This document shows positions 48,197 through 64,000 of a stretch of 64,000 nt of DNA, piece by piece; position 1 is the first letter of the stretch; each line of letters starts with the position of its first letter. This DNA is from Gallionella sp. (GTDB lineage Bacteria; Pseudomonadota; Gammaproteobacteria; Burkholderiales; Gallionellaceae). Under the pieces are notes generated by a model that was given only the letters and a program-made list of their open reading frames with translations, had not been told where the DNA came from and made no database searches. Location of the stretch: contig PLWV01000019.1 of assembly GCA_003153155.1 (NCBI GenBank), positions 1,137 through 65,136 of the forward strand. Reading direction: 5' to 3'. The position numbers and the translations under genes were made by a program.

Positions 48197-48202
48197 TAAA
48201 AA

Positions 48203-48430
48203 TCAACGGCGACGCAGATAAAAAATAAACTCGCCGTCATGCGCCGTCGAAGATAACAGTTCATTGCCCGTCTGACGGCAAAACACCTCAAAGTCTTTAG
48301 GTGATCCATTGTCAGTCGCGACTATTCTGATAACCTGGCCGCTGGTCATTTGCGACAGCGATTTTTTTGCGCGCAGAATCGGCAACGGACAGGCTAACTG
48401 ACGGGCATCCAGTTCAACATCGAATTTCAT
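48203..48430 (-). CDS. Sulfurtransferase TusA/SirA family
   Basis: LDARQLACPLPILRAKKSL, VATDNGSPKDF. Confidence 0.9.
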   Translation of the reverse strand: MKFDVELDARQLACPLPILRAKKSLSQMTSGQVIRIVATDNGSPKDFEVFCRQTGNELLSSTAHDGEFIFYLRRR

Positions 48431-48774
48431 GACTCTATCGGCAATCCGGCCTGCGCCCACGCCGTGATTCCGCCCTGCAGGTTATGCACATCGGTAAAGC
48501 CATTCGCCGCGGCAAATGCGGCAGCCTGCGCGGAGCGCCCGCCCACCTGGCAATAGAAGACGGTGGTGGAGCTCTTGTCCATCCCGCTTAAGCGCAACGG
48601 CAACAAATGTAGCGGCAAGGAGTCGCCCTGTGGAATTTTTCCGCGCGCCACTTCCGCATCCGTGCGCACGTCCACCAAGCGTAAGCCACCCTGTTTCATC
48701 ATCGCCTGCAGTTCTGCGACGGTGATATTCTTGAATCCGTTAATGTTCATGGCACTAGGCATTTTCTTGCTCAT
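48427..48774 (-). CDS. Rhodanese-like domain protein
   Basis: LVDVRT..E...G.IP, FYCQVGGRSAQAA, NLQGGITAW. Confidence 0.9.
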   Translation of the reverse strand: MSKKMPSAMNINGFKNITVAELQAMMKQGGLRLVDVRTDAEVARGKIPQGDSLPLHLLPLRLSGMDKSSTTVFYCQVGGRSAQAAAFAAANGFTDVHNLQGGITAWAQAGLPIES

Positions 48775-50065
48775 CTTCCGGTTGATTATGATCAGCCAAC
48801 AAATGCGAGACTCTGGTATTCGCAACCGACAAACGCTTTACCAGCATGCGCAGAAAAGCATCGACGAACTGTAACCGGCATCCAGTCGTTGCATGTTTCA
48901 GCACATCGGGGTTGATTTCGATCAGCACCACGTCGTTCTTGGCGATCACGTCGGTGCTGCGTTTGAAGTCACGCTCTAAAAGGTGCGCCATTTCACCAAA
49001 ACAATTACCGCGATGCAAGAGACTCAATAACCTGCCCTGCTTGGTCACACGCACCGTACCTTGTCCCAAAATGAAGAAAGAGCGTCCGCTTTCGCCTTCA
49101 TGGAGAATGTACTCGGATTCTGGAACTTTGCGCCATTCACTGATGCGCAACGCCTCCCAAAGTTCCACATCACTGAAATTCTTGAAAAACACCAAACTGC
49201 GCAGAGTGTCAAATTTTTCCGTATCAAAAATTTCTTTCTGAGCAGGTGCTGAATGACTGGAGAATCCGACCAGATCACTCGCAAACTCATCCCAAGTCTG
49301 ATAGCGTTTGGCAGTATCCTTCGCCATTGCGCGCTGCACAATCGCATCCAGTTCTGGCGGTGTTTCCGGACGAAATGTGCTGGGTGGTGGTGGGTCGATG
49401 TTGATGATGTGATAAATCATGCTGAAATTATTGCTCGCGTCAAACGGCAACTTGCCGGTAAGCAGTTTGTACATCACCACCCCCAGCGAATAGATATCCG
49501 TCTGATGAGTCAGTTTCAACTCTTTGACTTGTTCCGGCGACATGTAGGCAGGCGAACCTATCCCGCTGACTTGGGTGGTTTGCTGGTTCTGGATAGCCGC
49601 CGAGCCAAAGTCTGAAATCTTGATATCGGTTTCACCCTGCAACAAAATATTGGCCGGTTTGATATCGCGATGAATCACGCCCTGATACTGCGCATATTCG
49701 AGAGCCTTGCAACACTTGTAAGTGATTTCCGCAATGGTGCTGATCGGCAACAGCTTATCCACCTCGGCGTATTGTTCAAGTGTACTGCCCTCGACGTATT
49801 CCATCACCATGTAATTGATATCGCCCTCCATCACCGCATCCAGAATCTTTGCGATATGCGGATGTGACAACTTGCCCGCCAGCGATGCCTCAGTCATCAA
49901 GAGCTTGCGATAAATCTTGGCGCGATTGGGGTCGCGCAACATCCCAAGATCGAATAACTTGATGGCGACCTGCTGCTTGTTGAACGGATCGATAGCGAGG
50001 TACACTGTGCTGGTCGCCCCGGTACCGAGTACACGTACTATTTCGTATTTGCCGATTTTGTCCAT
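48755..50065 (-). CDS. Hanks-type Ser/Thr kinase fused to a C-terminal cNMP-binding domain
   Basis: LGTGATSTVY, VAIK, HRDIKPAN, DFG, SPEQ; C-terminal CFGEMAHL...KRSTDVIA. Confidence 0.9.
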   Translation of the reverse strand: MDKIGKYEIVRVLGTGATSTVYLAIDPFNKQQVAIKLFDLGMLRDPNRAKIYRKLLMTEASLAGKLSHPHIAKILDAVMEGDINYMVMEYVEGSTLEQYAEVDKLLPISTIAEITYKCCKALEYAQYQGVIHRDIKPANILLQGETDIKISDFGSAAIQNQQTTQVSGIGSPAYMSPEQVKELKLTHQTDIYSLGVVMYKLLTGKLPFDASNNFSMIYHIINIDPPPPSTFRPETPPELDAIVQRAMAKDTAKRYQTWDEFASDLVGFSSHSAPAQKEIFDTEKFDTLRSLVFFKNFSDVELWEALRISEWRKVPESEYILHEGESGRSFFILGQGTVRVTKQGRLLSLLHRGNCFGEMAHLLERDFKRSTDVIAKNDVVLIEINPDVLKHATTGCRLQFVDAFLRMLVKRLSVANTRVSHLLADHNQPEDEQENA

Positions 50066-50203
50066 TTCCTGATTGCGAGATTGAAAACTTTCCAATTCTG
50101 CGCATTTTGCAGAGCGCTGTCTATACGGAATGAATACACTTTGAAACAATTGTAGCGCCTCCGGCAGTTTGAACCACAAGCAAAAACAACTATCATAGTA
50201 ATC

Positions 50204-51667
50204 ATGAAAAAATTGAAAGGCGCTTATCCCGGCACCGGACTGACCCTGGCACTGCTGCTGTGCTTTTCACCCTGCGCCGTGAGTGACGGCCTTCCTGACT
50301 TGGGCGATGTCTCGCAGGCCGCGCTTACCCCGCTACAGGAACGCCAGATAGGACAGCAGAGCATGATGCAGATTCGTGCCGGCAAACAATATCTGGACGA
50401 TGCCGAGATCAACGATTACCTGAATCAACTGGGTGCCAAGCTGGTCGAAAACAGTCCCGAACCTTCACTCGATTTTGAATTTTTTGCAGTAGATGATTAT
50501 AGCGTCAACGCGTTTGCCTTGCCGGGTGGCTTCATCGGCGTAAATGCAGGGCTGCTACTCATAACTCAAAGTGAATCGGAATTAGCCTCCGTGTTAAGCC
50601 ACGAAATTTCACACGTCACACAACACCATCTGGCTCGCATGATAGAGGGGCAACGGGGTGATAGTCTGATCTCGATGGCGGCCATCGCCATCGCCATACT
50701 CGCCGCACGCACCAGCCCGCAAGCGGCAGAAGCCACCATCGCCAGCGTACAGGCGGGCAATATACAGAAACAGCTTAATTTTACCCGCGCTAATGAGGAG
50801 GAAGCGGATCGCATCGGCCTGCAGCTATTACAAAAATCCGGCTTCAACACCCACGCCATGCCGGAATTTCTGGAGCGGCTGCAAAAAGCAACGCGTCTGC
50901 TGGACAGCAACGCGCCAAACTATATGCGCACCCACCCGATCACCAGCGACCGCATCGCCGAGATCGAAAATCGCATCCATAACCAACCTTACCGCTTGAT
51001 TCCGGATAGCCTGGATTTTCAACTGGTGCGCACCAAACTCATCGCTGCACAAAAGACCGCGCCGGATGCCATCGCTTATTTCAGCGACGCCCTGGGAACG
51101 CAAAACTACGGCAACCCGATTGCACAGCGTTATGGACTGGTGAGCGCGCTGTTGCGCGATAACCAGATCCAGCGCGCCGCTCAAGAGTTGACTATTTTGC
51201 GCAAACAGGCCAAGACCAATCCGATGTCCAAGAATAGCCCGATGATAGAAACCCTCGCCGGACAGGTGCTGCGCGCCACAAAAAATTATACCGAGGCGCT
51301 GGCGTTTTACCGCACCGCCGTACAGAACTTTCCGCAACATCGCGCCCTGATTTATGACTACACCGACCTGCTGCTGCAGGACAACCAAGCGGAAATCGCC
51401 GTCAAACTGCTCACCGAACAACTCACCCGCCACCCCAGCGACACTACGTTATATGACCTGCAAGCCAGGGCCTACGCCATGCAAGGAAAAACTCTGGAAC
51501 AACATCAAGCACAAGCCTACAGCTATGCCTGGCAAGGCGATTTGCACGCTGCGATTGAGCAACTCGAATTGGCGAAACAGGCGGGCGGAAGCTTTTACCA
51601 ACTCTCTACGATAGAGAGCGATTTGCGCGAGTTGCGCGAGATGCTGGACGCGCACGGCAAAAAATAG
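50204..51667 (+). CDS. M48 metalloprotease with TPRs (BepA/YfgC-like)
   Basis: NAFALPGG, SHEISHVTQHH (HExxH), EEEADR.G, THP...RI. Confidence 0.92.
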   Translation: MKKLKGAYPGTGLTLALLLCFSPCAVSDGLPDLGDVSQAALTPLQERQIGQQSMMQIRAGKQYLDDAEINDYLNQLGAKLVENSPEPSLDFEFFAVDDYSVNAFALPGGFIGVNAGLLLITQSESELASVLSHEISHVTQHHLARMIEGQRGDSLISMAAIAIAILAARTSPQAAEATIASVQAGNIQKQLNFTRANEEEADRIGLQLLQKSGFNTHAMPEFLERLQKATRLLDSNAPNYMRTHPITSDRIAEIENRIHNQPYRLIPDSLDFQLVRTKLIAAQKTAPDAIAYFSDALGTQNYGNPIAQRYGLVSALLRDNQIQRAAQELTILRKQAKTNPMSKNSPMIETLAGQVLRATKNYTEALAFYRTAVQNFPQHRALIYDYTDLLLQDNQAEIAVKLLTEQLTRHPSDTTLYDLQARAYAMQGKTLEQHQAQAYSYAWQGDLHAAIEQLELAKQAGGSFYQLSTIESDLRELREMLDAHGKK

Positions 51668-51694
51668 CTGCTGCGCTTATCGTTCCCACGCTCT

Positions 51695-51811
51695 TGATGA
51701 AACACCTGATGAAACCACTAGCCATCTGACTAAGCTGCAAAAATCGCAGCAAGTCATTGGTTATAGCCATTCCACTAGGTTGTCAAAGAACGACAACCAA
51801 GTGGCTGGTTA
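51695..51811 (+). mobile_element. Array e: 2 leaders + 2 hairpins (117 bp) inside a GTTCCCACGC/GCGTGGGAAC palindrome (host family 3)
   Basis: tatcgttcccacgctct [TGATGAAACACC-TGATGAAACCAC-hairpin-hairpin] tgcgtgggaacgata. Confidence 0.85.
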
Positions 51812-51825
51812 TGCGTGGGAACGAT

Positions 51826-51851
51826 AAAAAAGCCCCTCTTGCGAGGGGCTT
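51826..51851 (-). terminator. Terminator downstream of pilA
   Basis: AAGCCCCTC-TTGC-GAGGGGCTT with a 6-A run on +. Confidence 0.8.
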
Positions 51852-51888
51852 ATACTTGCAGCACTACCCTAAGGTAGCTCAGGCAAGA

Positions 51889-52476
51889 TTAACTGCAAGA
51901 CTTAGGCAAAACGGCAGCCGGCAACAGAGTTGCAGCGGCACCGACTTTTGCTATATCTGCTGATGCTCCTATGGCTGGATTCTCGGAACCTAGAGTTGTA
52001 ACAACTCCCACAATGGTTATTGGATTGTCCGCGCTAGCATCACCATTGGCGCAAGTCCAGGAACCGCTGTTCGGGTTGTAGTACATGTGCACCTGCACAC
52101 CCGTACCTGCGTTCAAAAGTCTACTACTCACACCCGTACTCTTAAACTGCGCTACGACACTGAATGGGGATGCGGTTCCTTTGATGCCCGCGGCCGGGCC
52201 AGAGTTAGTCGACAAGCCAACCCCCATATTTGCAACATACTTGCCCTGGGTAATGGCGCTAATGCCGCTTGCGGTGTTGATTTCGAATAGACCAGAGGTT
52301 GTATATAGCTCGGTCAACGGCGTCTTTATGCCGTCCAGCAGCGTGAAGGCTTCAGCAGCTTGCGCACGGGCGGTGTAATCGCCGTAAGCAGGAATTGCTA
52401 CTGCAGCCAAGATACCGATGATCGCGACCACGATCATCAATTCGATCAAGGTAAAACCTTTTTGAATGTTTTTCAT
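51889..52476 (-). CDS. pilA: Type IVa major pilin
   Basis: Prepilin [31 protein letters not shown]; C-terminal Cys pair; lower GC than flanks. Confidence 0.93.
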
Positions 52477-52505
52477 ATTAAAGCTCCTTTTGAGTTAACT
52501 TTGTA

Positions 52506-52610
52506 TAGCCATTCGACTAGGCTGCCAAACAGCCTTGCATGTCCGATCGACTAATCTGGCAAACTACGCCAGCCAAGTCGCCGGTCAACGCCAGCCAAGT
52601 CGCTGGTTAA
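52506..52610 (+). repeat. Degenerate, rearranged copies of the hairpin element in the pilA 5' UTR
   Basis: tagccattcgactaggctgccaaacagcc...cgactaatctggcaaactacgccagccaagtcg...gccagccaagtcgctggtta. Confidence 0.75.
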
Positions 52611-52640
52611 CACACAACCTCGTGTGTTGGTGAGTATCTC

Positions 52641-52656
52641 AGCAATTGCCATGCCA
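52641..52656 (-). promoter_or_regulatory. Sigma-54 (-24/-12) promoter of pilA
   Basis: Minus strand TGGCAT-GGCAA-TTGCT matches TGGCAC-N5-TTGCW. Confidence 0.8.
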
Positions 52657-52796
52657 ATATCGCAATGCATTGTTATTGCTGAATGTATAAAAAGCACGTG
52701 AGACCACCGACACATTTTTTATATCAATATCCGTCACCCGACTGACGATTTTGGGCAATTACTTGCACTTCTCTCGTCGTATTTCGACATTTTAGC

Positions 52797-52826
52797 TATC
52801 GTTCCCACGTTCCGCGCGGGAACGAG
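52797..52826. repeat. Empty host-family-3 palindrome
   Basis: atcgttcccacgttccgcgcgggaacgag. Confidence 0.7.
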
Positions 52827-52933
52827 GTTTTTGACGCTCCGCCGGGTGCCCGGATAATAGCTTTTCATCGTCGCGAGAGATGGCGCGTTGTGTTGTTCAT
52901 GTTGCCACCGCTGAGCGAATCCGTTCCCGCGCG

Positions 52934-53050
52934 TAACCAGCCACTTGGTCGGCGTTTTTTGCCGGCCTAGTGGAATGGCTATAACCAATGACTTGCTGCG
53001 TTTTTTGCAGCTTAGTCAGATGGCTAGTGGTTTCATCAGTTGTTTCATCA
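52934..53050 (-). mobile_element. Array g: 2 leaders + 2 hairpins (117 bp) in a family-3 host, inverted relative to array e
   Basis: Minus strand atcgttcccatgctc [TGATGAAACAAC-TGATGAAACCAC-hairpin(TGAC/GTCA)-hairpin(CCAC/GTGG)] cgcgcgggaac. Confidence 0.85.
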
Positions 53051-53071
53051 GAGCATGGGAACGATGAATCA

Positions 53072-54847
53072 CTATGAATCCAGGTTGACACCCGGAATCT
53101 TGCCCAAATCCACATCGTCTATCTGTTCGGGCGCAAGAAATTGTTTGGCATAGTCGAGATAGACTTTTTCGCGCATGAAGACATCGAACAAATCGGGGTC
53201 GATATGCCCGCCCAGTTTGAACTTGCCGAGAATGGTCAGGGATTCGGTGAGGGTTTTACCTTTTTTGTAAGGTCTATCCTTGGCGGTGAGCGCCTCGAAA
53301 ATATCGGCGATGCCCATGACTCTGGCTTGCACCGACATCTGTTCGCGCGTCAGCCCGCGCGGATAGCCCTTGCCATCCATGCGTTCATGATGCCCGCCGG
53401 CATATTCGGGGACGTTTTTGAGATGTCTGGGCCAGGGCAGCGATTCCAGCATTTTGATGGTGACATCGATGTGATGGTTGATGATTTCGCGTTCCGCCGC
53501 CGTCAATGTGCCGGCGCGTATGGTGAGATTTTCGACTTCATCTTCACTGAGAAAATTGCTCGCCTTTCCATCACCATCGCGCCATTGATAGGTGGCGATC
53601 TGGCGCACACGTTGCTGCGCCTCTGCAGACATTGCCTCGCTGCCGACGTTACAGTGCCGCAGAAATTCACGGTCATCATCGAGTTGCCGGATGCGCTCCG
53701 CGTACTCGGCATGGATAGGTGTGACCGCTTCACTTTTACCCCCTCTGATGGAACTACTAGCCATCTGACTAGGCTGTCCAACAACGACAGCCAAGTCATT
53801 GGTTACCCCACCCTCCCCCTTCAAGGGTGAGGGAGTTGCCGCAATTTCGCGCAGCCCCCGCAAGGGGGACACCGATGGGTGCCCGGCAGCTTCGCTGCCA
53901 CCCTCTCGCAGCATTTCAATTTCGGCATCGCGCTTGAGCACCTCGAAACGCGTGTCCAGCAAATGAATTCGATCGAAGAGAGTATGCAGTTTGGTCGCCT
54001 TATCCACCACATGCACCGGTGTGGTGATCTTGCCGCAGTCATGCAGCAAGCCGGCGATCTTTAATTCGCGCCGATCTTTCTCGGTCATCACAAAATCTTT
54101 GAGCGGGCCTGATGTGGTGCGATTGACCGCTTCGGCCAGCATCATGGTCAGTACCGGCACGCGCTCGCAATGGCCGCCGGTATAAGGAGACTTGTCGTCT
54201 ATCGCGGTATTGATGAGTTGGATGAAGGACTCAAACAACTCTTCCAATTGATCGATGAGATGACGATTAGTCAATGCAATGGCCGCCTGCGAAGCGAGCG
54301 ATTCCAGTAACTGTTGGTCATCCCTTGAGAACGGGACGATCGCGCCGCTTTCCTGATCTTGCGCATTGATCAATTGCAACACCCCGATGACCTCATTCTC
54401 GTGGTTGCGCATCGGCACGGTCAAAAAGGACTGGGAACGATAACCGGTCTTGGCATCAAATTTTTTGGTGCCGGAAAAATCGTAGCCCTCCGCCATATAA
54501 GCATCGGGAATATTCACAGTTTCACCGCTAAGTGCCGAGTGGCTCACCACCATGGCGTGATTGGGCTTGCCAGCAGCATCGTAAAGCTGAATCGGATAAA
54601 AGGTAATCGGTACGCCGCTGGTTCCGCCCATCGCCTTATTCAGCGTATTGTTGCGCAAAATTTCAAAGCGCAACACTCGCTGCTCCTGTTCGTGCAGATA
54701 GAGCGTGCCGGCATCAGCGTGCGTAATGCGCATCGCCGCTACCAGAATGGTTTCCAGCAAGCTGTTGAGATCGCGCTGTTGAGACAGGGCAATGCCAATC
54801 TCATTGAGATCTTTGAGGCGATGCAGAAGGTTGTCAGAAGAATGCAT
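53072..54847 (-). CDS. GAF-HD-GYP c-di-GMP phosphodiesterase with repeat-derived insertion
   Basis: GAF (YRSQSFLTVPM.NH..EVIGVLQLINA), YTGGHCERV, LHDCGK, HHERMDGKGYP. Confidence 0.92.
   Translation of the reverse strand: MHSSDNLLHRLKDLNEIGIALSQQRDLNSLLETILVAAMRITHADAGTLYLHEQEQRVLRFEILRNNTLNKAMGGTSGVPITFYPIQLYDAAGKPNHAMVVSHSALSGETVNIPDAYMAEGYDFSGTKKFDAKTGYRSQSFLTVPMRNHENEVIGVLQLINAQDQESGAIVPFSRDDQQLLESLASQAAIALTNRHLIDQLEELFESFIQLINTAIDDKSPYTGGHCERVPVLTMMLAEAVNRTTSGPLKDFVMTEKDRRELKIAGLLHDCGKITTPVHVVDKATKLHTLFDRIHLLDTRFEVLKRDAEIEMLREGGSEAAGHPSVSPLRGLREIAATPSPLKGEGGVTNDLAVVVGQPSQMASSSIRGGKSEAVTPIHAEYAERIRQLDDDREFLRHCNVGSEAMSAEAQQRVRQIATYQWRDGDGKASNFLSEDEVENLTIRAGTLTAAEREIINHHIDVTIKMLESLPWPRHLKNVPEYAGGHHERMDGKGYPRGLTREQMSVQARVMGIADIFEALTAKDRPYKKGKTLTESLTILGKFKLGGHIDPDLFDVFMREKVYLDYAKQFLAPEQIDDVDLGKIPGVNLDS
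53746..53805 (+). mobile_element. 60-bp element, copy h (in frame, antisense within the HD-GYP gene)
   Basis: TGATGGAACTAC-TAGCCATCTGACTAGGCTGTC-CAACAAC-GACAGCCAAGTCATTGGTTA in a family-1 REP. Confidence 0.85.
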
Positions 54848-54853
54848 GGGGTA

Positions 54854-54945
54854 GTCGTTGGTCGTTGGTCGTTGGTCGTTGGTCGTTGGTCGTTGGTCGG
54901 TTTGGGTTTGAATTAACTAGCGACTAACGACTAGCAGCTAATAAC
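54854..54945. repeat. Inverted pair of heptamer tandem repeats (GTCGTTG x6 / CTAACGA-like)
   Basis: Seen directly between the ATPase and HD-GYP genes. Confidence 0.8.
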
Positions 54946-54947
54946 TA

Positions 54948-57356
54948 TTACTTGATACAAACTGCGCGTACCTGATGCATATCGGTAACGCCCTGCAGCA
55001 CCTTCTCCATGCCGTCTTGCTTCAACGTGTGCATCCCTTCGTCCAGCGCGATAGCCAATAACTCGGCAACCCGTGCATGTTCCTGAATGGCCCTCTTGAC
55101 AGGGTCGGTACCAATCAGCAATTCATGCAAGCCCACTCTCCCACGATAGCCGGTGCCGGAACATTTTTCACATCCAACCGGTCCATAGATCGTAAATTGT
55201 CCTTTGTCATCGGCAAACAACTTCCGCCACTCGGCATACAGAGCCTTCATCGCAGCAGCCGGATCTTTCTTCCAGGTCACGGTATTGACCAGTTCGGCGC
55301 TGTACTCATCCAGCATCGCTTTTATTTCATCGGCGGTTGCGGTATGCGGTTTCTTGCAATCGGCACATAAGCGTTTTGCCAAACGCTGCGCCAAAATGCC
55401 GAGCAGCGCATCGGCAAAGTTGAACGGATCCATACCCATATCCAGCAAGCGAATGATGGATTCCGGCGCGCTGTTGGTGTGCAGGGTGGCGAACACCAAG
55501 TGACCAGTCAGCGAGGCTTCGATACCGATGGACACGGTTTCCTTGTCGCGCATTTCACCGACCATAATCACGTCCGGATCGGCACGCAGAAAGGCGCGCA
55601 TGATGGTGGGAAAATCCAGCCCGGCCTTTTTGTTGATCTGCACTTGGCGCAGCCCCTTCTGGGTAATTTCCACCGGATCTTCGACGGTCCAGATCTTGGT
55701 GTCCGGCTTGTTGATGTATTTGAGGACGGAGTGCAGCGTGGTGGTTTTACCGGAACCGGTCGGACCGCACACGAAGAACAGCCCGTATGGCTTGCTGACC
55801 GTAGCTTTGACCAACTCTGAATTGCGCGCGGAGAAGCCCATCTTTTCCAATGGCAATGGCTCACCGGAGGCCAGAATACGCATCACCACATCTTCCACGC
55901 CGCCCTGCGAAGGAATGGTCGCCACACGCAGCTCGATATCCAGCGGGCCGAATTTCTTGAACTTGATCTTGCCGTCCTGCGGTTTGCGCTTCTCGGAAAT
56001 ATCCAGGTCGCACATGATCTTGATACGGGTGATCAGTGCGTTGCGATAAGTTGACGGCACTTCGATGTAGTTCATCAATGAACCGTCTTTGCGCACCCGA
56101 ATCTGCGTCTTGGCTTTGCCCGGTCCCGGTTCGATATGAATATCCGACGCGCCCATCCGGTAAGCATCTACGATGACCTTGTTGACCAGCTTGACCAATT
56201 CATTATCGGCGGCGGCGCTGACGTCCTCCTGGCTGACACCGGAGATTTCTTCTTCTTCTCCACCCAGGCTAGTCAACAAATCATCCATGGACGATTCATC
56301 GACTACCATGCCACCGCTACCATCTGAAACAGCGCCGCCACCATAAAACAAATCCAGGGTTTGCTTGAATTCGCGTTGCGAGCAAACCTTATAGACCAGC
56401 CGACTCTTGGAAAAAATGTTATTGACCACCCGCGAAGCCTGAATCCGCTCCGGATCAGTGGTCAAAATCATCAGCCCCTCCTGGGTTTCCTCGATTGGAA
56501 TCCAATGACTGCTTTCTACATACTCGCGTCTCAGGTTTTTCAACAACTCGGTAGGCTTGAGGCGATCGCTCCGGTATGGTTCGTAAGGGACTCCAAAAAA
56601 GCTGGACAGCGCCTTGCCCAAGGCGGCGACACTGACTTGAAATTCGTCTAGCAGCACCTCTTCGATGTCTATGCCCTTGCGCCGCGCGGTGCGCGTCGCC
56701 AATTCGAATTCCGCAGCAGAAAGTACCGCATCGGCAACCAGATAGTCATACTTGGTCTTGGTCGTGCTGCTTTGCTGACGCTGATGCTGGCGCAACGCCA
56801 CCGCCATGGTCTGCGCCAGTTCCTGCACGCCTTCTTCGATCATCGCCGCAAAAGGGACACCAGCCTTGTTATTGATGACCTGGATGACACCAACCAGATC
56901 GCCACTGGCTGCATCCAGAATCGGAGCGACCAGCATTTGCTTGGTACGGTATCCGGTGCGCTTGTCTACTTCCTTAAAAAAACGCAGATGCGCGCTGTAC
57001 TGCGCCAACTCTTTTTCATCGTAAACATCCTTGATGTTAAGCAGTTTTTTATGCATTGCCGCATAACCGGCAACGCTTTGCTCAGCGATGGGTAACTTGA
57101 GATCTTTGAAAGAATTGAGCCCGGTCTTGACCTTGGAAATAAGTGAGATATTGTCTTCACCCACGACATAGATGGTCAGCCGATCCGCATTGAACAGCGC
57201 GCAGATGTCCTTGCTGACCTCCAGCATGATTTCATCAACGTTACCGGTGGCGTGTATCTTATTGTTGACGTGATTGAGATTCTTGGTGAATTCGAGCCTG
57301 AGGCTCATATCACCGACATTGTTTGCTGCGCTATTGGTCGCCATTACTGTACTCAT
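54948..57356 (-). CDS. GAF-fused PilB/GspE-family secretion ATPase
   Basis: N-terminal GAF (GYRTKQMLVAPI...GVIQVINNK), Walker A GPTGSGKTTT, TVEDPVE, LRADPDVIMVGEMRD, TLHTN, Cys motifs CADC and CEKC. Confidence 0.92.
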   Translation of the reverse strand: MSTVMATNSAANNVGDMSLRLEFTKNLNHVNNKIHATGNVDEIMLEVSKDICALFNADRLTIYVVGEDNISLISKVKTGLNSFKDLKLPIAEQSVAGYAAMHKKLLNIKDVYDEKELAQYSAHLRFFKEVDKRTGYRTKQMLVAPILDAASGDLVGVIQVINNKAGVPFAAMIEEGVQELAQTMAVALRQHQRQQSSTTKTKYDYLVADAVLSAAEFELATRTARRKGIDIEEVLLDEFQVSVAALGKALSSFFGVPYEPYRSDRLKPTELLKNLRREYVESSHWIPIEETQEGLMILTTDPERIQASRVVNNIFSKSRLVYKVCSQREFKQTLDLFYGGGAVSDGSGGMVVDESSMDDLLTSLGGEEEEISGVSQEDVSAAADNELVKLVNKVIVDAYRMGASDIHIEPGPGKAKTQIRVRKDGSLMNYIEVPSTYRNALITRIKIMCDLDISEKRKPQDGKIKFKKFGPLDIELRVATIPSQGGVEDVVMRILASGEPLPLEKMGFSARNSELVKATVSKPYGLFFVCGPTGSGKTTTLHSVLKYINKPDTKIWTVEDPVEITQKGLRQVQINKKAGLDFPTIMRAFLRADPDVIMVGEMRDKETVSIGIEASLTGHLVFATLHTNSAPESIIRLLDMGMDPFNFADALLGILAQRLAKRLCADCKKPHTATADEIKAMLDEYSAELVNTVTWKKDPAAAMKALYAEWRKLFADDKGQFTIYGPVGCEKCSGTGYRGRVGLHELLIGTDPVKRAIQEHARVAELLAIALDEGMHTLKQDGMEKVLQGVTDMHQVRAVCIK

Positions 57357-57466
57357 TCCACTCCCTCGCCCGTCTCTTTAGGCTGCTGTTGTGCCGACCT
57401 CGGCATCAACCATGGTCCATATCCAACCAGAATTTTGATGTCGGGTGTGTAACTCATCGCCTACTC

Positions 57467-58231
57467 TTAAAGCTCGAATTCTTGATTGTTCAACAACATC
57501 TTGGGACTCAGCCCACGCACACAATCTTCTATCTCCTGCATGATCAACTCCATCTCACCCGGTTTGAGATGAGTGATGAATACTTCTGCATCGCGCTTAT
57601 ATTTGAGCAACTCTCCAGCGAGCATACTGGTGCACAGATGCTTGGAAAGTACCGCTAAATCCTTTTCTCTGTTTGAAAATGCCGTCTCGATGATGAGGTA
57701 ACGCAAATTCTCAATTTTGTTGACCACCTTCCATAACGCATCATTAGTGGTGGTGTCCCCGCTAAAAACCAGGCTCGCCTTACCACTGTCCAAATGATAG
57801 CCAACCGCAGGCACAACATGATTGGCGGGGACAGAGGTTATCTTGCGCCCATTCAGGACAACAGTCTCGCCCAGCTCCATCGACTGGTAACGCAGGTAAG
57901 GTTGCCGAGCATTGGGAATCTCGCTGAAATCCGGCCATATTTTCCAATTGAAAATATGTTGTTTGAGGATGTCCAGCGTCTCCTCGCTTGCATAAACAGT
58001 CAATGGGCGATCACGCATGAACCCAGCACTGTCCAACATAAATGGAATGCAGGTGATATGATCAAGGTGAGAATGGGTAACGAAAACATGATCAATCATA
58101 GCAAGTTCTGTCAGGCTGAGTTCACCCACCCCGGTACCGGCATCAATCAGCACGTCATGATCGAGCAGGAACGAAGTGGTGCGCAGATTGCCACCGATTC
58201 CACCACTGCATCCCAATACTCTGAGTTTCAT
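57467..58231 (-). CDS. Metallo-beta-lactamase-fold 3',5'-cyclic-nucleotide phosphodiesterase (class II-like)
   Basis: LRVLGCSGGIG, LIDAGTG, THSHLDHI, NHVVPAVGY, FSGDT. Confidence 0.85.
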   Translation of the reverse strand: MKLRVLGCSGGIGGNLRTTSFLLDHDVLIDAGTGVGELSLTELAMIDHVFVTHSHLDHITCIPFMLDSAGFMRDRPLTVYASEETLDILKQHIFNWKIWPDFSEIPNARQPYLRYQSMELGETVVLNGRKITSVPANHVVPAVGYHLDSGKASLVFSGDTTTNDALWKVVNKIENLRYLIIETAFSNREKDLAVLSKHLCTSMLAGELLKYKRDAEVFITHLKPGEMELIMQEIEDCVRGLSPKMLLNNQEFEL

Positions 58232-58263
58232 TTTGTCCCGTGTATCCTGATAAATTAATCGGG

Positions 58264-60486
58264 TTACTTGGTCTGGAAATCGAACACGCCATCCCAATCC
58301 GCATTCGGTGGATTTTTACGGAAGAAAGCAACGCGCTCCGCGTATTTTCCATACAGGGCAGTACCCGGCGACATGCGCTGCAAATTCATCAGTTGCAATT
58401 CTGCCTGATCCCAATCCTGCTTGCGATACAGGCGACGCACTTCATGGAACAACTTGACTTCGTCCTGAAGTGCTTTGCTCGCCTCACTGACCAATGCTAT
58501 CGGTTCGTAAATCGCCACGGGCCTATCTTTACCTTTTACCCGCACGTGGTCAAGTTCGCGATATAAAAAGTCCGTCACGAGGTTCTGGGTATTCTCACCG
58601 ACGATGATGCCCACCCCGTATTGCTTGGTGATACCTTCCAGACGTGATGCCAGGTTCACTTCATCGCCCATCACCGTGTAGGCAACACGCACTTCTGAAC
58701 CCATGTTGCCCACACTGACGCGCCCGGTATTGATGCCCACACCAACGTGAATTCCCGGCCAACCGCGTTCCTTGAAGTGTGGCTGCAATGCTTGCAAAGT
58801 CGCCTGCATCTCGATACCCGCCAGTATGGCGTTGCGGGCATGATCCCTGTCCGGCAGAGGTGCCCCCCAAAATGCCATGATGCAGTCGCCCATATACTTG
58901 TCTATCGTGCCGCGGTGTTTATAGATAACGCGCGACAAGGGGGTCAAAAACTCATTCATCAACAGGGATAATTCTTTTGGATCCAAGCCCTCTGAGATGG
59001 TGGTAAAGCCACGCACATCTGAAAACAGAATGGTCATTTCACGGCTTTCACCTACCATGGACACGCTTTCCGGATGTTTCGCCATTTCCTCAACCAGTTC
59101 GCTCGGCACATATTGCCCGAACAGTCCGGTAATCTGCCGCTTGGTACGCGACTCGACGAAGTAACCGTAAGACATATCCAAGGCGAATAACAAAGCGATC
59201 ATTAACAGACTGTTCGCCACTGGCATCAATACATTCCCGTACTGCCAAGCAACCAAACTCAGCCCTGTCGTTGTGATGAGTGTAAAAACCGAGGCGAGAA
59301 TCGCTTTGGCCGGAGTGAATAACGGCAACAAAAAGCTCAAAGCAATGCCGATCAACAACAGCCAAACCACTTCCGCACCCAGCATATAAGCAGGTCGCTC
59401 TTTCAAATTTTGATCGAGAATACCGGAAATCATGTTGGCGTGGACTTCCACCCCCGGGTAAACCTCCGACACCGGTGTGGCGCGCATATCCAACAACCCG
59501 GGAGCGGTTGTGCCCACCAGAATGATCTTGTCTTTCAGTTGTGCAGGATCAACGCGTTCGTGCAGCACATCGGTTATCGAAATATAACGAAAACTCCCCT
59601 GTCCACCGCGGTACGGCACAAAAGTTGCCACATCACTGTCGACCGGGATTTTTAGCCTGCCTCCGGCCGCATCCAGCTCCAACCACTCCAAACCGGCATA
59701 CCCGCCGGTCTTGGCCTCGGCAAAGCCGGGTAACAATTTGGTTTGGCCCAGCAAGGTGCGAACCATCGCAAGAGATAAAGACTCATAATATGCGCCGTCG
59801 TATTCTACGAGCATGGGCACACGGCGTACCCGGCCATCAAAGTCCACCAAAGGATTGAAGTGACCCGCGCTGGCGGCGGCTTGTTGCAACTCGGGGAGAT
59901 TGGCCCCGTAGCCATTCCAAGTTGTGAACTCTACCGAATGTCCCTTGAAGGAGCCAGATGGGAAGGTCGGCTCGGGAAGCATCCCGGAAGCACGCTGGTC
60001 TTTTTGATTGGTTAGATAATACCCCAACACCACATTGCGATTTTTGATCTTGCTGGCAAACAGGTTGTCGTACTCGAGTTGCGGTCGGATTTGGCTGAGC
60101 GTCGATTGAAACGACATATCGCCCTTGAGTTGATTTTGCCCGAGCTTCTGCAACACCTTTAGCCCTGAACTCTCATCCCTCTCGGCAAAAACGACGTCAA
60201 AGCCCACCACCGCGACGCCATATTTATCGAACAGCTTGTCCATCAACATGGCCAAGCGGTCCCGCCCCCATGGCCAGCGCCCTTCTTCCTTCAGGCTTTT
60301 TTCGTCTATATCGATGATAACGATACGATCATCCAGCGTGCGCGGCATGGTCAACCGCAACCGATAATCGTGAATAATGGAAGACAGCTGCTCGACAAAA
60401 TCCAGTCTGTAAAAACGGGCGGCGCTACCGACAAAAAACAAGACTATCAGCAGCCCAAGCCCAATCAAGATTGCGTTTTTTTTCAC
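58264..60486 (-). CDS. CHASE2-domain class III adenylate/guanylate cyclase
   Basis: DIDEKSL..EGRWPW.R (CHASE2); FSDVRGFT, DKYMGDCIMAFW, YTVMGDEVNLASRLE. The K...T pattern suggests ATP specificity. Confidence 0.93.
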   Translation of the reverse strand: MKKNAILIGLGLLIVLFFVGSAARFYRLDFVEQLSSIIHDYRLRLTMPRTLDDRIVIIDIDEKSLKEEGRWPWGRDRLAMLMDKLFDKYGVAVVGFDVVFAERDESSGLKVLQKLGQNQLKGDMSFQSTLSQIRPQLEYDNLFASKIKNRNVVLGYYLTNQKDQRASGMLPEPTFPSGSFKGHSVEFTTWNGYGANLPELQQAAASAGHFNPLVDFDGRVRRVPMLVEYDGAYYESLSLAMVRTLLGQTKLLPGFAEAKTGGYAGLEWLELDAAGGRLKIPVDSDVATFVPYRGGQGSFRYISITDVLHERVDPAQLKDKIILVGTTAPGLLDMRATPVSEVYPGVEVHANMISGILDQNLKERPAYMLGAEVVWLLLIGIALSFLLPLFTPAKAILASVFTLITTTGLSLVAWQYGNVLMPVANSLLMIALLFALDMSYGYFVESRTKRQITGLFGQYVPSELVEEMAKHPESVSMVGESREMTILFSDVRGFTTISEGLDPKELSLLMNEFLTPLSRVIYKHRGTIDKYMGDCIMAFWGAPLPDRDHARNAILAGIEMQATLQALQPHFKERGWPGIHVGVGINTGRVSVGNMGSEVRVAYTVMGDEVNLASRLEGITKQYGVGIIVGENTQNLVTDFLYRELDHVRVKGKDRPVAIYEPIALVSEASKALQDEVKLFHEVRRLYRKQDWDQAELQLMNLQRMSPGTALYGKYAERVAFFRKNPPNADWDGVFDFQTK

Positions 60487-60498
60487 GACGCTTAACTA

Positions 60499-60607
60499 GA
60501 GGACGGAAGACAGAGGACGGAGGACGGATTTTGTGTGCCGCCACACGGCACGTTCATTGAAGACGCGGCGCAGTCGCGACAACACCTCTGTCTTCTGTCC
60601 TCTGTCC
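60499..60607. repeat. Inverted pair of heptamer tandem repeats (GAGGACG / CTGTCCT)
   Basis: gaggacg-gaagaca-gaggacg-gaggacg against ctctgtc-ttctgtc-ctctgtc. Confidence 0.75.
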
Positions 60608-60611
60608 ACCG

Positions 60612-61463
60612 CTATCCCTTGAAATAGAATTCCATCTTGACCCCAGCCAACTCAATCACATCGTGCTCATTCAGCTGATGCGCCTGATTAGTCAGTGCCT
60701 GACCATTCACCAACGGGAAATTTTCCCCTTCGACATGGGTGATGAAGAAACCCTGCGGACGACGGGTCAGTACTGCCACCTGCATGCCCGGCTTACCTAA
60801 AGTGGTGAGGTTTTTTACCAACTCGAGTTCCTTCCCGGCATTAGGCCCAGTCAAAACTTGCACCACAGCGACCTGTTTTGGAGCACCAGCTTGCGGAGCA
60901 GCCGCAGAAGCAGAAACAGCTGGCTTTGCCGGCTGTGCTGGCTTTGCTGGCGCAGCAGCTTGGGCAGGAGCAGCCGGAACCGTCGGCTGGTGCGCTTCGA
61001 ACTTGCCGGTCATTTCTACCGCCTCTTCATGTGTCGGTTTAATACCGGCTTGCGTTTGCATAAAACCGTGCATCTCCGCCGGTTTGTTCGCAGTTGGGGC
61101 TGGAGTCGCCTGCTTAACGGGCGCACGCAGAACCATAGTCTTTTCAAAGTCAGCCGGACTGGTTTGGGTGACTTGGTCGTTGATGTATTTCAGCTTGTAT
61201 TTGCCGATTTCGATTACATCATTGTTTTGCAGGAAGTGCTTTTTAGTCGGTTTCCCATTCACTTCCAGCCCGTTGGTACTATCCATGTCCTCGAGAAAGG
61301 AATCGTGCAGGATGGTGACGATCGCAGCATGCTCACCGCTCACCGCCAAGTTGTCGATGGCGATGTCGTTGTGTGCCTTGCGCCCGATGGTCATGCGCTC
61401 TTTGTTAAGGGGATATTCTTTAATTATCGCCCCATCCATGCTGAGTATCAATTTTGCAGCCAT
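60612..61463 (-). CDS. Double FHA-domain protein
   Basis: TIGRKAHNDI.I...VSGEHA...DMDSTNG, Ala/Pro linker, second FHA-like domain. Confidence 0.9.
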   Translation of the reverse strand: MAAKLILSMDGAIIKEYPLNKERMTIGRKAHNDIAIDNLAVSGEHAAIVTILHDSFLEDMDSTNGLEVNGKPTKKHFLQNNDVIEIGKYKLKYINDQVTQTSPADFEKTMVLRAPVKQATPAPTANKPAEMHGFMQTQAGIKPTHEEAVEMTGKFEAHQPTVPAAPAQAAAPAKPAQPAKPAVSASAAAPQAGAPKQVAVVQVLTGPNAGKELELVKNLTTLGKPGMQVAVLTRRPQGFFITHVEGENFPLVNGQALTNQAHQLNEHDVIELAGVKMEFYFKG

Positions 61464-61484
61464 AGTCGTAACCCTCGTACTAAA

Positions 61485-62450
61485 TTATTTCTCAAACCAA
61501 CTGAGCAGTTTAGCCGGCCAACCACGCGGCACGGCAAATTTGCCCTTTACCTTCACCAGTATCACCGAAACATTATCGCGGCCGCCATTATCGTTCGCCA
61601 TCTGTATCAACTGACTTGCCGCAAGCGGCAAATTACTCTGCAACGCATAAAGCGTGGACTGAATATCCTCATCCTCCACCATGTCGTTCAAACCGTCCGA
61701 ACACAGCAGGTAAATATCCCCGAGCAACACGTCATACACATGAATTTCTGCCTCAACATCGGCATCAATCCCGACCGCGCGCGTCACCAAATTTTTGTTC
61801 TTGGACAAGCGCGCATCTTCAACGCTGATCATTCCCCTATCAATCTGCTCCTGTAGCAGGGAATGATCTCGGGTGATCGTTTCCAGCACTTCGCCGCGCA
61901 ATCGGTACATGCGCGAATCACCCACATGTCCAACCGCCACGCGATTATCATAAAACAGTCCGGAGACGATGGTCGTTCCCATCCCGGCATACTGCGGCTG
62001 ACTTTGCGCAGCATGAAAAATAGAGGCATTGGCCTTCTGAATGTTGTCGCGCAACAGCGACACGCCCAGCTCCTCGCCGTTTTTCAGCCCTCTCCTCAAT
62101 CCTCCCCCCAAGGGGGATGAGGCGATCGTCCTTTCCCCCTCGGGGGAAAGGTTATAACCAGCGACTTGGCTATCGTCCTTTGATAGCTTGGTCGAATGGC
62201 TAGTAGTTTTATCAGGATGAGGGTATACGCGTTCCACCGGGCTGGCGTTCAGCAAACGGTGACTGACTTCCGTCACGACCACCGAAACAGCAATGCCGCT
62301 AGCCACCTCGCCCGCATTGTACCCCCCCATGCCGTCAGCCAACACCACCAAGCCACAGGCAGGCTCACACGCCACACTATCCTCATTGTGCGAGCGCACC
62401 ATGCCGGGGTGGGTCTGGCTGAATATTTCCAACGCCTCCGTAATCTTCAT
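61485..62450 (-). CDS. PP2C-family Ser/Thr phosphatase with repeat-derived insertion
   Basis: THPGMVRSHNED, LADGMGGYNAGEVAS, GMGTT, HVGDSR.Y, LCSDGL, GGRDNVS. Confidence 0.93.
   Translation of the reverse strand: MKITEALEIFSQTHPGMVRSHNEDSVACEPACGLVVLADGMGGYNAGEVASGIAVSVVVTEVSHRLLNASPVERVYPHPDKTTSHSTKLSKDDSQVAGYNLSPEGERTIASSPLGGGLRRGLKNGEELGVSLLRDNIQKANASIFHAAQSQPQYAGMGTTIVSGLFYDNRVAVGHVGDSRMYRLRGEVLETITRDHSLLQEQIDRGMISVEDARLSKNKNLVTRAVGIDADVEAEIHVYDVLLGDIYLLCSDGLNDMVEDEDIQSTLYALQSNLPLAASQLIQMANDNGGRDNVSVILVKVKGKFAVPRGWPAKLLSWFEK
62155..62214 (-). mobile_element. 60-bp element, copy i (in frame in PP2C)
   Basis: TGATAAAACTAC-TAGCCATTCGACCAAGCTATC-AAAGGAC-GATAGCCAAGTCGCTGGTTA, splitting ATCC^TAACC; encodes DKTTSHSTKLSKDDSQVAGY. 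Confidence 0.85.
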
Positions 62451-62459
62451 GTATACCCC

Positions 62460-64000
62460 CTATATGCTGGCAGCACACTGGCGCAATGCGTCGGCCATTT
62501 CAGCGCCATTGGCATAGCGATCCTCAACTTGCTTGGCCAATGATCGGTTAATGATCGCCACCAAACATGCCGGCAAATCTGCCCTGATGCTCAGAATATC
62601 GGTATGCGGTTCATTGGCGATCCGGAACATTAATTGCGCCATCGAATCCCCTTCGAACGGAAGCTTACCACAAGCCATTTGGTACAAACTCACGCCCAAA
62701 GAAAACAGGTCGGAGGCGCCTTCGATCTTCTTCCCGGCCAATTGCTCCGGCGACATAAAAGATGGCGTACCCAATACCATGCCGGTTTTGGTTTTGCTCG
62801 AGTCGGTGATACGCGCAATGCCGAAATCGGTCACCTTGGGCGTATCCGTCTCGGGGTCGTACATGATGTTGGCCGGTTTGATGTCGCGATGCACCACGTT
62901 CTGTTTATGCGCATAATCCAGCGCATCGGCGACACGTGCAATGATATTCATCACCTTGGGCAATGGCAGCAAATTATCCGGCTTGGTATAGGGAGCCAAG
63001 TCCTTGCCTTTGAGAAACTCCATCGCGATGTAGGCAAGGTCATGCTCTTCTCCCGCATCATACATAGTTACGATGTTCGGGTGATTCAGACGACCCGCTG
63101 TTTCGGCCTCGCGGAAGAAGCGGGATTTCACGTCTTCCAGCTCATCGGCCTCGAACTCTTGCGCCAGTGCCATGGTCTTGATCGCCACGACGCGACCGAT
63201 TTTCGGGTCTTTGCCGAGATACACCACCCCCATCGCACCCTTGCCGAGCTCCTTCTCTATTTCATAACGTCCCAGCATCGGCTTGGACACGCCCGCCTTG
63301 TCCAGCACCATCGTACTGGCGTTACTCTTACCGGATGAACCGCCGAGCATCACTGTTTCCGACATCGCCTTGGACTGTGCCTGGCGCGCAGCCAAATCGC
63401 GGAACTTGGGGTTATATTCCGCCATGTATTTGAATACCGACTCCGCCTTGTTGAACTGACGCTTGCGCTCGAAGTCCAGCCCCAGGTTGTACAGCACCTC
63501 CATCAGACTATCGTCCACCCGCACCTTGCGGAACTTGTCGAAGGCGATATCCAGTTGCCCCTGGCCCTGGAAAGCCAAGCCGAGCATACGATTGCTTTCC
63601 GCAGATTCGGCATCGGATCTCTGCTTGCCCTTCTCGGTCATCAGGAAGCGTTTGGTTGTCAGCAACAAATGACCAACCAATAACAGCGCGGCGGGCAGCA
63701 TCAGTTGCAACCACATCGCCTGAGTCATCATCAATACGAAATGCGCAACCAGCAACACGGTGAACAACGCGCCAGTGACCAGCGCACCGATGGCGGCATT
63801 CAGGCGCGGCAACAACAGAATCAGATATAGCGCGACCAGCAGGAATACGCCGATTTGCGCCCATTCAGCCCAACTGGGCGTAACAAAGAAATCACCTTTG
63901 AGTATGCTCGACACCGAATGCGCCAAAGTCACCACCGGTGCCATACCGGAAGAAATGGGTGTCACTTGCAACGACCCGATACCGGTTGCCGACGCACCGA
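62460..64000 (-). CDS. CHASE2-TM Ser/Thr protein kinase (5' part outside the window)
   Basis: Frame open to the edge (IGASATGIGSLQVTP); LGKGAMGVVY, VAIK, HRDIKPAN, DFGIAR, GTPSFMSPEQ. Confidence 0.92.
   Translation of the reverse strand, partial: GASATGIGSLQVTPISSGMAPVVTLAHSVSSILKGDFFVTPSWAEWAQIGVFLLVALYLILLLPRLNAAIGALVTGALFTVLLVAHFVLMMTQAMWLQLMLPAALLLVGHLLLTTKRFLMTEKGKQRSDAESAESNRMLGLAFQGQGQLDIAFDKFRKVRVDDSLMEVLYNLGLDFERKRQFNKAESVFKYMAEYNPKFRDLAARQAQSKAMSETVMLGGSSGKSNASTMVLDKAGVSKPMLGRYEIEKELGKGAMGVVYLGKDPKIGRVVAIKTMALAQEFEADELEDVKSRFFREAETAGRLNHPNIVTMYDAGEEHDLAYIAMEFLKGKDLAPYTKPDNLLPLPKVMNIIARVADALDYAHKQNVVHRDIKPANIMYDPETDTPKVTDFGIARITDSSKTKTGMVLGTPSFMSPEQLAGKKIEGASDLFSLGVSLYQMACGKLPFEGDSMAQLMFRIANEPHTDILSIRADLPACLVAIINRSLAKQVEDRYANGAEMADALRQCAASI

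Follow-up and report, generated by a model that had tools for sequence, protein, structure and literature searches.

Can cyclic AMP (cAMP) act on the motor of a type IV pilus itself? This question is raised by a signalling gene cluster at one end of a 64,000-nucleotide (nt) stretch of DNA from Gallionella sp., here called the window, which corresponds to positions 1137-65136 of contig C30 in a 2.75-Mb genome that is 95% complete. An open reading frame (ORF) listing and Pfam scans recovered, with their domains, all of the eight consecutive minus-strand genes that an earlier note on this DNA had described. They encode a CHASE2 Ser/Thr kinase, a PP2C phosphatase, an FHA protein, a CHASE2 adenylate cyclase, an MBL-fold hydrolase, a motor ATPase with an N-terminal GAF domain (GAF-ATPase), a GAF-HD-GYP phosphodiesterase and a type IVa pilin. 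Two details differ from that description: PP2C precedes FHA, the order being kinase, PP2C, FHA, and the kinase gene is cut by the end of the window and runs on to the equivalent of position 65042. On balance, we favour the view that cAMP would gate both a type IVa pilus motor and the hydrolysis of cyclic di-GMP (c-di-GMP), with a parallel phosphothreonine input.

The seven genes from the kinase to the HD-GYP gene are separated by gaps of 9, 21, 125, ~32, 110 and 100 nt, and the terminator-like matches within this block are weak (stems of 5-7 pairs). The short gaps and the absence of a strong internal terminator are compatible with co-transcription of the seven genes. The G+C content is even along the region. 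Gene order was compared by tblastn of the window proteins against the best 80 of at least 592 species loci (one genome per species). With the N-terminal 380 amino acids (aa) of the ATPase as query, an orthologue (52-87% identity) turned up in 22 of the 24 genomes of the genus and in 8 of the 16 further families of the order that were sampled. The best 80 loci were all from Betaproteobacteria, and their carriers include Gallionella, Sideroxydans, Nitrotoga, Pelomicrobium, Rhodocyclaceae, Nitrosomonas, Methylophilaceae and Sulfuricella as well as Propionivibrio, Methyloversatilis, Herminiimonas, Chitinimonas viridis and Parachitinimonas caeni. Order and strand were kept for the phosphodiesterase gene in 55 of 60 loci, for PP2C and FHA in 53 of 60 each, for the cyclase in 45 of 60, for the kinase in 42 of 60 and for HD-GYP in 60 of 66. 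The synteny comparison that the earlier note had suggested thus bears out a conserved gene order, with the full seven-gene set in 33 of the 52 loci that have enough flank on both sides. Since order and strand recur in most of the 80 species loci, the clustering far exceeds chance. Moreover, the outer flanks vary in distant families where the kinase, PP2C and FHA genes are still joined to the cAMP, ATPase and HD-GYP genes, so that the core is conserved beyond passive inheritance. The seven genes are a putative, vertically inherited signalling operon of Betaproteobacteria (Burkholderiales in the GTDB sense). The full module was not found in an even class sample of 299 Gammaproteobacteria genomes from outside Burkholderiales; eight of these gave a distant ATPase match (29-32% identity over the N-terminus), with HD-GYP adjoining in one and a CHASE2 cyclase in one. 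Such distant GAF-ATPases outside the order are 40% identical over their full length and are mostly orphans among housekeeping genes. In one complete genome of the same genus (G008, locus L024 4636-8800), the match to the CHASE2 cyclase is broken into three pieces that stretch over 4.2 kb, and the cluster has no CHASE2 kinase, which suggests insertion and partial decay of the module.

The ATPase at the centre of the proposal (802 aa; 54948..57356, minus strand) has GAF, MshEN-like and T2SSE domains by Pfam. Its Walker A (GPTGSGKTT), Walker B/Asp box (VGEMRD) and His box (LHTN) motifs and the four cysteines of the zinc motif (C664, C667, C729 and C732) are invariant among 81 orthologues, and the T2SSE domain scored 380.8 bits. 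By motif and profile the protein is a member of the PilB/GspE (T2SSE) superfamily of hexameric secretion ATPases, and by its profile scores it is a separate subfamily within it. The best solved relatives of its core are PilB of Myxococcus and PilF of Thermus, slightly ahead of GspE. The GAF domain found its best solved match in the cAMP-binding tandem GAFs of Anabaena CyaB2 (1ykd, E=7e-23), followed by PDE10A (2zmf), PDE2A (3ibj), PmGH, PDE6 and PDE5. An AlphaFold model of residues 1-385 (mean pLDDT 78.8; ~90 in the GAF core and the MshEN-like domain) retrieved PmGH, PDE5, GAF-B of PDE10A (2zmf; 30% identity, rmsd 2.9), CyaB2 and cAMP-bound Lcd1 (5w10) in a Foldseek search. The GAF of the HD-GYP protein, compared by sequence only, resembles the PDE5 and CyaB2 GAFs, and the signature TGYR(T/S)...P...GVxQxIN is common to both GAFs of the module. 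Both are therefore placed, by their sequences, in the cAMP/cGMP-binding GAF group, and the predicted fold of the ATPase GAF agrees with this.

In MshEN domains, c-di-GMP is bound through 24-residue motifs (Wang et al., 2016; PMC5013675). The GAF-ATPase was aligned with the MshE-like paralogue of the same genome, on contig C26, which keeps both of these motifs. In the GAF-ATPase the MshEN fold is still recognised (Pfam, 34.9 bits), but RLG...Q is replaced by KYD...R and DIE...F, and the motifs are also lost in all of the aligned orthologues. As both motifs are gone, c-di-GMP was rejected as an unlikely ligand of the motor through MshEN, and c-di-GMP would be an output of the module, by way of the HD-GYP protein, and not an input to its motor. 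Among the other ATPases of the genome, the one at C26:217299-219002 retains both MshEN motifs (RLGDLLV...Q) and lies beside its own platform and pilin genes; the one at C1:39864-41582, likewise next to a platform gene of its own, has an N-terminus that resembles the motif (QLGQILV...), with the key arginine changed to glutamine.

The GAF-HD-GYP protein (591 aa; 53072..54847, minus strand; Pfam GAF and HD/HD_5, the latter with 141 bits) has the architecture of PmGH, which it matches with E=7.9e-32 (4mcw). Its LLHDCGK and HHERMDGKGYP motifs are invariant or nearly so in 64 orthologues. A protein of this architecture from Thermosynechococcus vulcanus, Tlr0485, hydrolyses c-di-GMP only with cAMP on its GAF domain (bioRxiv 10.1101/2021.11.05.467447).

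Upstream of the ATPase gene lies the CHASE2 class III adenylate cyclase (740 aa; 58264..60486, minus strand; Pfam CHASE2 208.9 and Guanylate_cyc 80.4 bits). In 55 orthologues its two metal-binding aspartates (D490 and D534), the substrate-specifying lysine and threonine (K530 and T604) and the transition-state asparagine and arginine (N611 and R615) are invariant. The Lys530/Thr604 pair presumably marks an adenylate cyclase of subclass IIIb, and with the class III adenylate cyclase residues complete the enzyme is predicted to make cAMP. The CHASE2 input that the earlier note saw as shared by two receptors holds for the domain family; the CHASE2 domains of cyclase and kinase are 28% identical, and a common signal is not implied. 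Downstream of the cyclase, an MBL-fold hydrolase (57467..58297, minus strand; 276 aa, likely 254 with the true start at M23, position 58231; Pfam Lactamase_B_2, 65.4 bits, and partial PDEase_II) carries an HxHxDH motif (HSHLDH) whose three histidines and aspartate are invariant in 54 orthologues. In ~38 of 84 loci (~45%) a further gene, encoding a cyclic mononucleotide-binding domain with a rhodanese domain (cNMP_binding-rhodanese), is inserted between the phosphodiesterase and ATPase genes; because of this insertion, which we regard as a further sign, a cyclic mononucleotide (cNMP) would be the currency of the module. The 'three-messenger circuit' of the earlier note survives in that parts for cNMP, phosphothreonine and c-di-GMP are all present; it has to be amended in that c-di-GMP appears as an output only, the motor lacking the MshEN motifs.

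The link to type IV pili comes from elimination among ATPases and platforms and from the neighbouring pilin. The genome holds six long T2SSE ATPases as opposed to four platform (T2SSF) proteins. Three ATPases adjoin their own platform, in a Gsp system, an MshE-like system and one other cluster, and a pilC-pilD-coaE group stands without an adjacent ATPase. This leaves three unpaired ATPases: the GAF-ATPase, a TfpB equivalog (915 bits) and a divergent one of 522 aa. Two other genomes, G013 (same genus, 100% complete) and G031 (another family), each have a single unpaired extension ATPase, namely the GAF-ATPase, and a single unpaired platform, namely the orthologous pilC-pilD-coaE; PilM is present. 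By this elimination the GAF-ATPase is a candidate type IVa pilus extension motor in G013 and G031.

The pilin (195 aa; 51889..52476, minus strand) has the short leader MKNIQKG and Pfam matches above the cut-offs to Pilin (44.7 bits) and N_methyl (38.7 bits). With this leader, the two domains and a sigma-54-type promoter, the protein is by prediction a PilA-like type IVa major pilin. The promoter consensus (TGGCATGGCAATTGCT; 52641..52656, minus strand) lies 165 nt upstream of the start codon, and its TGGCAT-N5-TTGCT is on the right strand; TGGCAYN5TTGCW has no other match in the 64 kb. A relaxed form, TGG[CT]A[CT]N5TTGC[AT], was found 61-115 nt upstream of the adjacent pilin gene in 17 of 37 orthologous loci. 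Behind the gene, an intrinsic terminator (51830..51851, minus strand; a nine-pair stem with 6 G-C pairs, then a T run) is the strongest minus-strand terminator-like site in 48000-64000. Directly after HD-GYP, a pilin gene on the same strand was found in 27 of 56 loci; within 10 kb, one was found in 31 of 45. The type IV pilus link drawn by the earlier note is thus upheld, both by the elimination described above and by the pilin gene that comes right after the module in about half of the loci. Its inclusion of the pilin in the module is not: a 595-nt gap with repeats, the sigma-54-type promoter and the terminator rule the pilin out as an eighth operon gene, and because of its own promoter and terminator it is a conserved neighbour under its own control, as pilA is elsewhere, transcribed as a separate unit. 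Two 129-nt inverted repeats (51695-51823 and 52922-53050; 92% complementary, 1098 nt apart) enclose the whole pilin cassette of promoter, gene and terminator and could allow its inversion or exchange. An 84-aa ORF at 52734-52988 was dismissed as spurious, since it has no Pfam match and overlaps the repeat arm 52922-53050. In one locus (L022 4506-6056, genome G039) a Wzy_C/O-antigen-ligase-like gene stands directly after the pilin gene. It can be likened to the tfpO pilin-glycosylation genes, which adjoin group I pilA in Pseudomonas.

The second input of the proposal is the phosphothreonine trio. The kinase (860 aa; 62460..64000, minus strand, continuing as said to 65042) consists of CHASE2, transmembrane, TPR and Hanks Ser/Thr kinase parts. 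Its full ORF (L003:596-3178) scored 181.9 bits for CHASE2 and 185.1 bits for Pkinase, and GxGxxG, VAIK, HRD, DFG and SPE are invariant in 42 orthologues. The PP2C Ser/Thr phosphatase (321 aa; 61485..62450, minus strand; Pfam PP2C_2) matches the NCBIfam model Stp1/IreP with 232.6 bits (cut-off 230), and its metal-binding motifs RxxNED, DGMGG, DGL and DN are invariant in 59 orthologues. The FHA protein (283 aa; 60612..61463, minus strand; Pfam FHA 68.5 bits) is encoded by the only FHA gene detected in the genome, and R28, S42, H45 and N64 are invariant. The catalytic and phosphothreonine-binding residues of the triad are thus predicted to be intact. The FHA protein has a canonical N-terminal FHA domain, a Pro/Ala linker and a degenerate C-terminal FHA-like domain (Yop-YscD_cpl, E=2e-6), and its AlphaFold model consists of two beta-sandwiches with a disordered linker between them. 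With the first domain, Foldseek retrieved the FHA domains of Ki67, GarA, OdhI, DgcB (6hc1) and ArnA. Within the otherwise variable linker lies a conserved island, DFEK-T109-MVLR (residues 105-113), with the consensus [DE]F[ED][KR]-T-[MLV][VIM][LI][RK], in which the threonine is invariant and Leu or Ile stands at +3. In a GarA-like switch, T109 might serve as the phosphorylated residue to which an FHA domain docks.

From these parts the following course of events can be proposed for the favoured reading of a cAMP-gated pilus motor. An extracytoplasmic signal at the CHASE2 domain of the cyclase would raise cAMP, which the MBL-fold hydrolase would remove. Bound to the GAF domain of the ATPase, cAMP would allow or stimulate this enzyme to act on the orphan PilC, the platform of a type IVa pilus machine whose PilC-PilD, PilM and PilT are encoded elsewhere, and pili of the neighbouring PilA would then extend. 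The same cAMP would activate the GAF-HD-GYP protein, as in Tlr0485, so that c-di-GMP would fall and the c-di-GMP-dependent MshE-type pilus system of the genome would be turned down; such a fall could switch the cell between pilus systems. The second CHASE2 receptor, the Hanks kinase, would be opposed by PP2C and would phosphorylate the Thr109 island of the FHA protein or a partner of that protein. A GarA/OdhI-like FHA switch would then flip and place a second, independent gate on the motor or the cyclase. A bolder version can be offered only tentatively: a PilB-lineage motor may have exchanged its MshEN c-di-GMP switch for a cAMP-binding GAF domain, so that cAMP from the CHASE2 cyclase would start pilus assembly at the motor and lower c-di-GMP through the sister GAF-HD-GYP protein, with the CHASE2 kinase, PP2C and FHA acting through Thr109 as a second post-translational gate. 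One operon would then bring three chemistries to bear on one nanomachine in hundreds of betaproteobacterial species.

Several observations tell against this proposal, the first of them concerning the motor. The GAF-ATPase scored 478.9 bits with the PilB equivalog TIGR02538 (cut-off 675.65), 441.2 with the GspE equivalog (cut-off 630.25) and 385.7 with TfpB (cut-off 850), and in the window's genome, as in most of its relatives, the TfpB equivalog is a further extension ATPase that is unpaired. Perhaps the GAF-ATPase is auxiliary, or its function is a different one. It would then serve a different PilB/GspE-type process, such as secretion, DNA uptake or a novel filament, or be a regulatory or scaffold ATPase that depends on cAMP, and the pilin would be a mere syntenic neighbour. 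Besides the scores below the PilB and GspE cut-offs, this explanation is consistent with a cluster that has no platform, secretin or alignment genes, with a TfpB equivalog that could serve PilC, with the 40%-identical GAF-ATPases that stand alone amid housekeeping genes in other Gammaproteobacteria, and with the pilin's own promoter and terminator. We consider it unlikely, though one to be reckoned with, since the GAF-ATPase is the sole ATPase left for the orphan pilC-pilD in G013 and G031, the pilin recurs after or near HD-GYP at the frequencies given above, and the ATPase core is nearest to Myxococcus PilB and Thermus PilF, before GspE. Where a TfpB-like protein co-occurs, the GAF-ATPase would be an alternative motor.

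The remaining contrary points concern the ligand and the coherence of the module. It is possible that the GAF ligand is cGMP or another small molecule. The MBL-fold hydrolase, probably a class II cNMP phosphodiesterase, is the weakest assignment in the module: PDEase_II (53.1 bits) covers profile positions 83-168 of 340 only, the NCBIfam model cyc_nuc_deg_phdiest gave 42.8 bits (cut-off 400), and among solved structures it is nearest to RNase Z (5.8e-7), with yeast PDE1 (3.2e-6) close behind. Of the synthesis and breakdown of cNMP proposed in the earlier note, the former stands on invariant cyclase residues, while the latter stands weakly, given this uncertain identity. The cluster is without the cyclase in 15 of 60 loci and without the kinase in 18 of 60; in Nitrosomonas it comprises the phosphodiesterase and ATPase only, with HD-GYP too in one of three loci, and Methylophilaceae retain the ATPase alone. 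Because the cyclase or the kinase is missing from some loci and the Methylophilaceae ATPase is solitary, parts of the module can work apart. Furthermore, many loci share the synteny of sucCD, terC and usp as well, so the conservation is partly plain vertical inheritance.

On another view the operon would serve mainly c-di-GMP and cAMP homeostasis, with the trio regulating the cyclase or the HD-GYP protein and not the motor, and with GAF domains that sense redox state, a metabolite or some other cue that is not a cNMP. GAF domains bind diverse ligands, none being established for PmGH, cross-talk from FHA to c-di-GMP is known from Bdellovibrio DgcB, a structural match of the FHA model, and PP2C and FHA remain with the phosphodiesterase, ATPase and HD-GYP genes in five loci of the 'PFDH' type where the cyclase is absent. 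All the same, both GAFs are closest to cAMP/cGMP-binding GAFs, that of the ATPase also in its predicted fold, the cyclase with its invariant adenylate-specific residues is kept in 45 of 60 loci, and a further cNMP_binding protein is inserted in nearly half of the loci. We regard the homeostasis explanation as improbable.

That the trio is the usual threonine-phosphorylation pathway of a type VI secretion system (T6SS), or that the eight genes are a chance run of signalling genes, is very improbable: PpkA-PppA-Fha1 is indeed the best-known proteobacterial context of such trios, and the synteny of sucCD, terC and usp indicates an order that is partly passively inherited, but the sheath protein TssC/VipB (PF05943) had no match in the whole 95%-complete genome while control genomes behaved as expected, the flanks to the contig end hold housekeeping genes and no T6SS genes, the trio keeps its place beside the ATPase, HD-GYP and cAMP genes in families with different outer flanks, and the gaps are only 9-125 nt. 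The absence of T6SS genes that had been noticed in the window thus extends through the 8.8 kb to the contig end and, for TssC/VipB, to the whole genome.

With the cAMP-gated motor as the favoured reading, the module can be compared with systems that are already characterised. In the PpkA-PppA-Fha1 trio of the P. aeruginosa H1-T6SS, a Hanks kinase whose sensor domain is extracytoplasmic is likewise encoded together with a PP2C phosphatase and an FHA protein, and the trio gates a nanomachine post-translationally. The Gallionella trio differs in that no T6SS sheath gene was found in its genome, its genes adjoin those of cAMP enzymes and of a PilB-type ATPase, and the kinase sensor is CHASE2. The FHA model superposes on the FHA domains of GarA and OdhI from Actinobacteria and of ArnA (of the ArnA/ArnB pair of Sulfolobus). 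GarA and OdhI fold back onto their own phosphorylated threonine motif; here, by difference, two FHA-like domains are present and the threonine island lies between them and not at the N-terminus. ArnA links phosphothreonine signalling to the archaellum, which is a type IV filament, and acts on transcription. In DgcB (FHA-GGDEF; 6hc1) of Bdellovibrio bacteriovorus, phosphothreonine recognition by FHA controls c-di-GMP metabolism, but there the FHA domain is fused to a c-di-GMP cyclase, whereas here it is a separate protein encoded beside a c-di-GMP hydrolase. In CyaB/CpdA/Vfr with Pil-Chp of Pseudomonas aeruginosa and in Cya1/SYCRP1 of Synechocystis, cAMP that is made by a membrane cyclase and removed by a phosphodiesterase governs the production of type IV pili. 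Control of the Vfr/SYCRP1 type acts through CRP-family transcription factors; the cluster has no CRP-type regulator, and the proposed receptor would be the motor itself.

Closer to the motor, MshE of V. cholerae belongs to the same ATPase superfamily and has, by Pfam, the same helical MshEN-type N-terminal domain (Wang et al., 2016; PMC5013675). The proposal also shares with MshE the idea of an N-terminal sensor by which a small-molecule second messenger gates a pilus or secretion motor, but the GAF-ATPase lacks both c-di-GMP motifs and has a cNMP-type GAF domain in front. The architecture GAF-MshEN-T2SSE was listed, unstudied, in the supplement of the same work for Glov_1971 of Geobacter lovleyi (PMC5013675). 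For the HD-GYP protein, the architecture is that of Tlr0485 and of PmGH from Persephonella marina, the latter being the closest solved relative; the module enzyme differs in being co-encoded with a cyclase, a probable phosphodiesterase, a second GAF protein and the phosphothreonine trio, and the copy in this genome carries a repeat-derived insert. The searchable literature held no characterised equivalent of the gene combination, of a GAF-PilB or of FHA/PP2C control of PilB. The earlier note's remark that it knew of no characterised equivalent therefore stands, qualified by the partial precedents of Tlr0485 and the 2016 listing. The enzyme families are all known, and precedents exist for two halves of the scheme; of the combination, and of a pilus motor gated by cAMP, the searchable literature gave no description.

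The surroundings of the cluster contain further signalling genes. On the kinase side, the contig ends after a further 8.8 kb, in which Usp, TerC, SucD, SucC and a TPR-GT41-FkbM protein are encoded. The opposite flank carries a BepA-type M48 protease, a kinase-cNMP fusion, a rhodanese, TusA and ValRS. The fusion of a Ser/Thr kinase to a cNMP-binding domain (474 aa; 48755..50179, minus strand; Pfam Pkinase 179.9 and cNMP_binding 55.8 bits) had been left outside the module of the earlier note, and such a gene is near the module in a minority of loci, including L061 and L066 of distant families. It is possible that this protein is an accessory reader linking cAMP to phosphorylation. Mutual replacement of the cNMP_binding-rhodanese and kinase-cNMP genes was considered and not supported (0/19 as opposed to 4/23; Fisher p=0.11, not significant). 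The rhodanese gene (48427-48825) and TusA (48203-48460) come after the kinase-cNMP gene. This rhodanese (CQxGxRSAxAAAF) has a homologue in the rhodanese domain encoded by the cNMP_binding-rhodanese gene that other genomes carry within the module. Elsewhere the genome holds a second kinase-cNMP protein (C9:108388-109641, 44% identity), a second MBL-type hydrolase (C28:43153-43917, 49%) and two more CHASE2 cyclases (among these paralogues, C12:72426-74399); cNMP signalling is unusually rich for a small genome.

Two genes of the cluster contain in-frame copies of a short repeat element, at 53745-53805 in HD-GYP (aa ~327-370) and at 62155-62215 in PP2C (aa ~82-127). The repeat-derived inserts add ~44-46 residues and are missing from the closest relatives (L032-L034; ATPase 88-91% identical). 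In locus L036, HD-GYP is interrupted at this same site by an independent insert, whose peptide resembles the PP2C insert. The PP2C insert is lineage-specific.

When bacteria extend type IV pili is an active question. To our knowledge, the direct inputs to an extension motor are c-di-GMP (for MshE and some PilB) and protein cofactors, and cAMP acts on pili only through transcription factors. If the proposal is true, direct reading of cAMP by the motor would add a new mode of control. Equally new would be the encoding of such a motor together with the enzymes that set the cAMP level, a c-di-GMP hydrolase of the cAMP type and a eukaryote-like kinase/phosphatase/FHA switch. The operon would then be a compact natural example of cross-talk among three signalling systems, in a module that is widespread in Betaproteobacteria of environmental importance (iron oxidisers, nitrifiers and wastewater Rhodocyclaceae), where attachment and surface behaviour matter.

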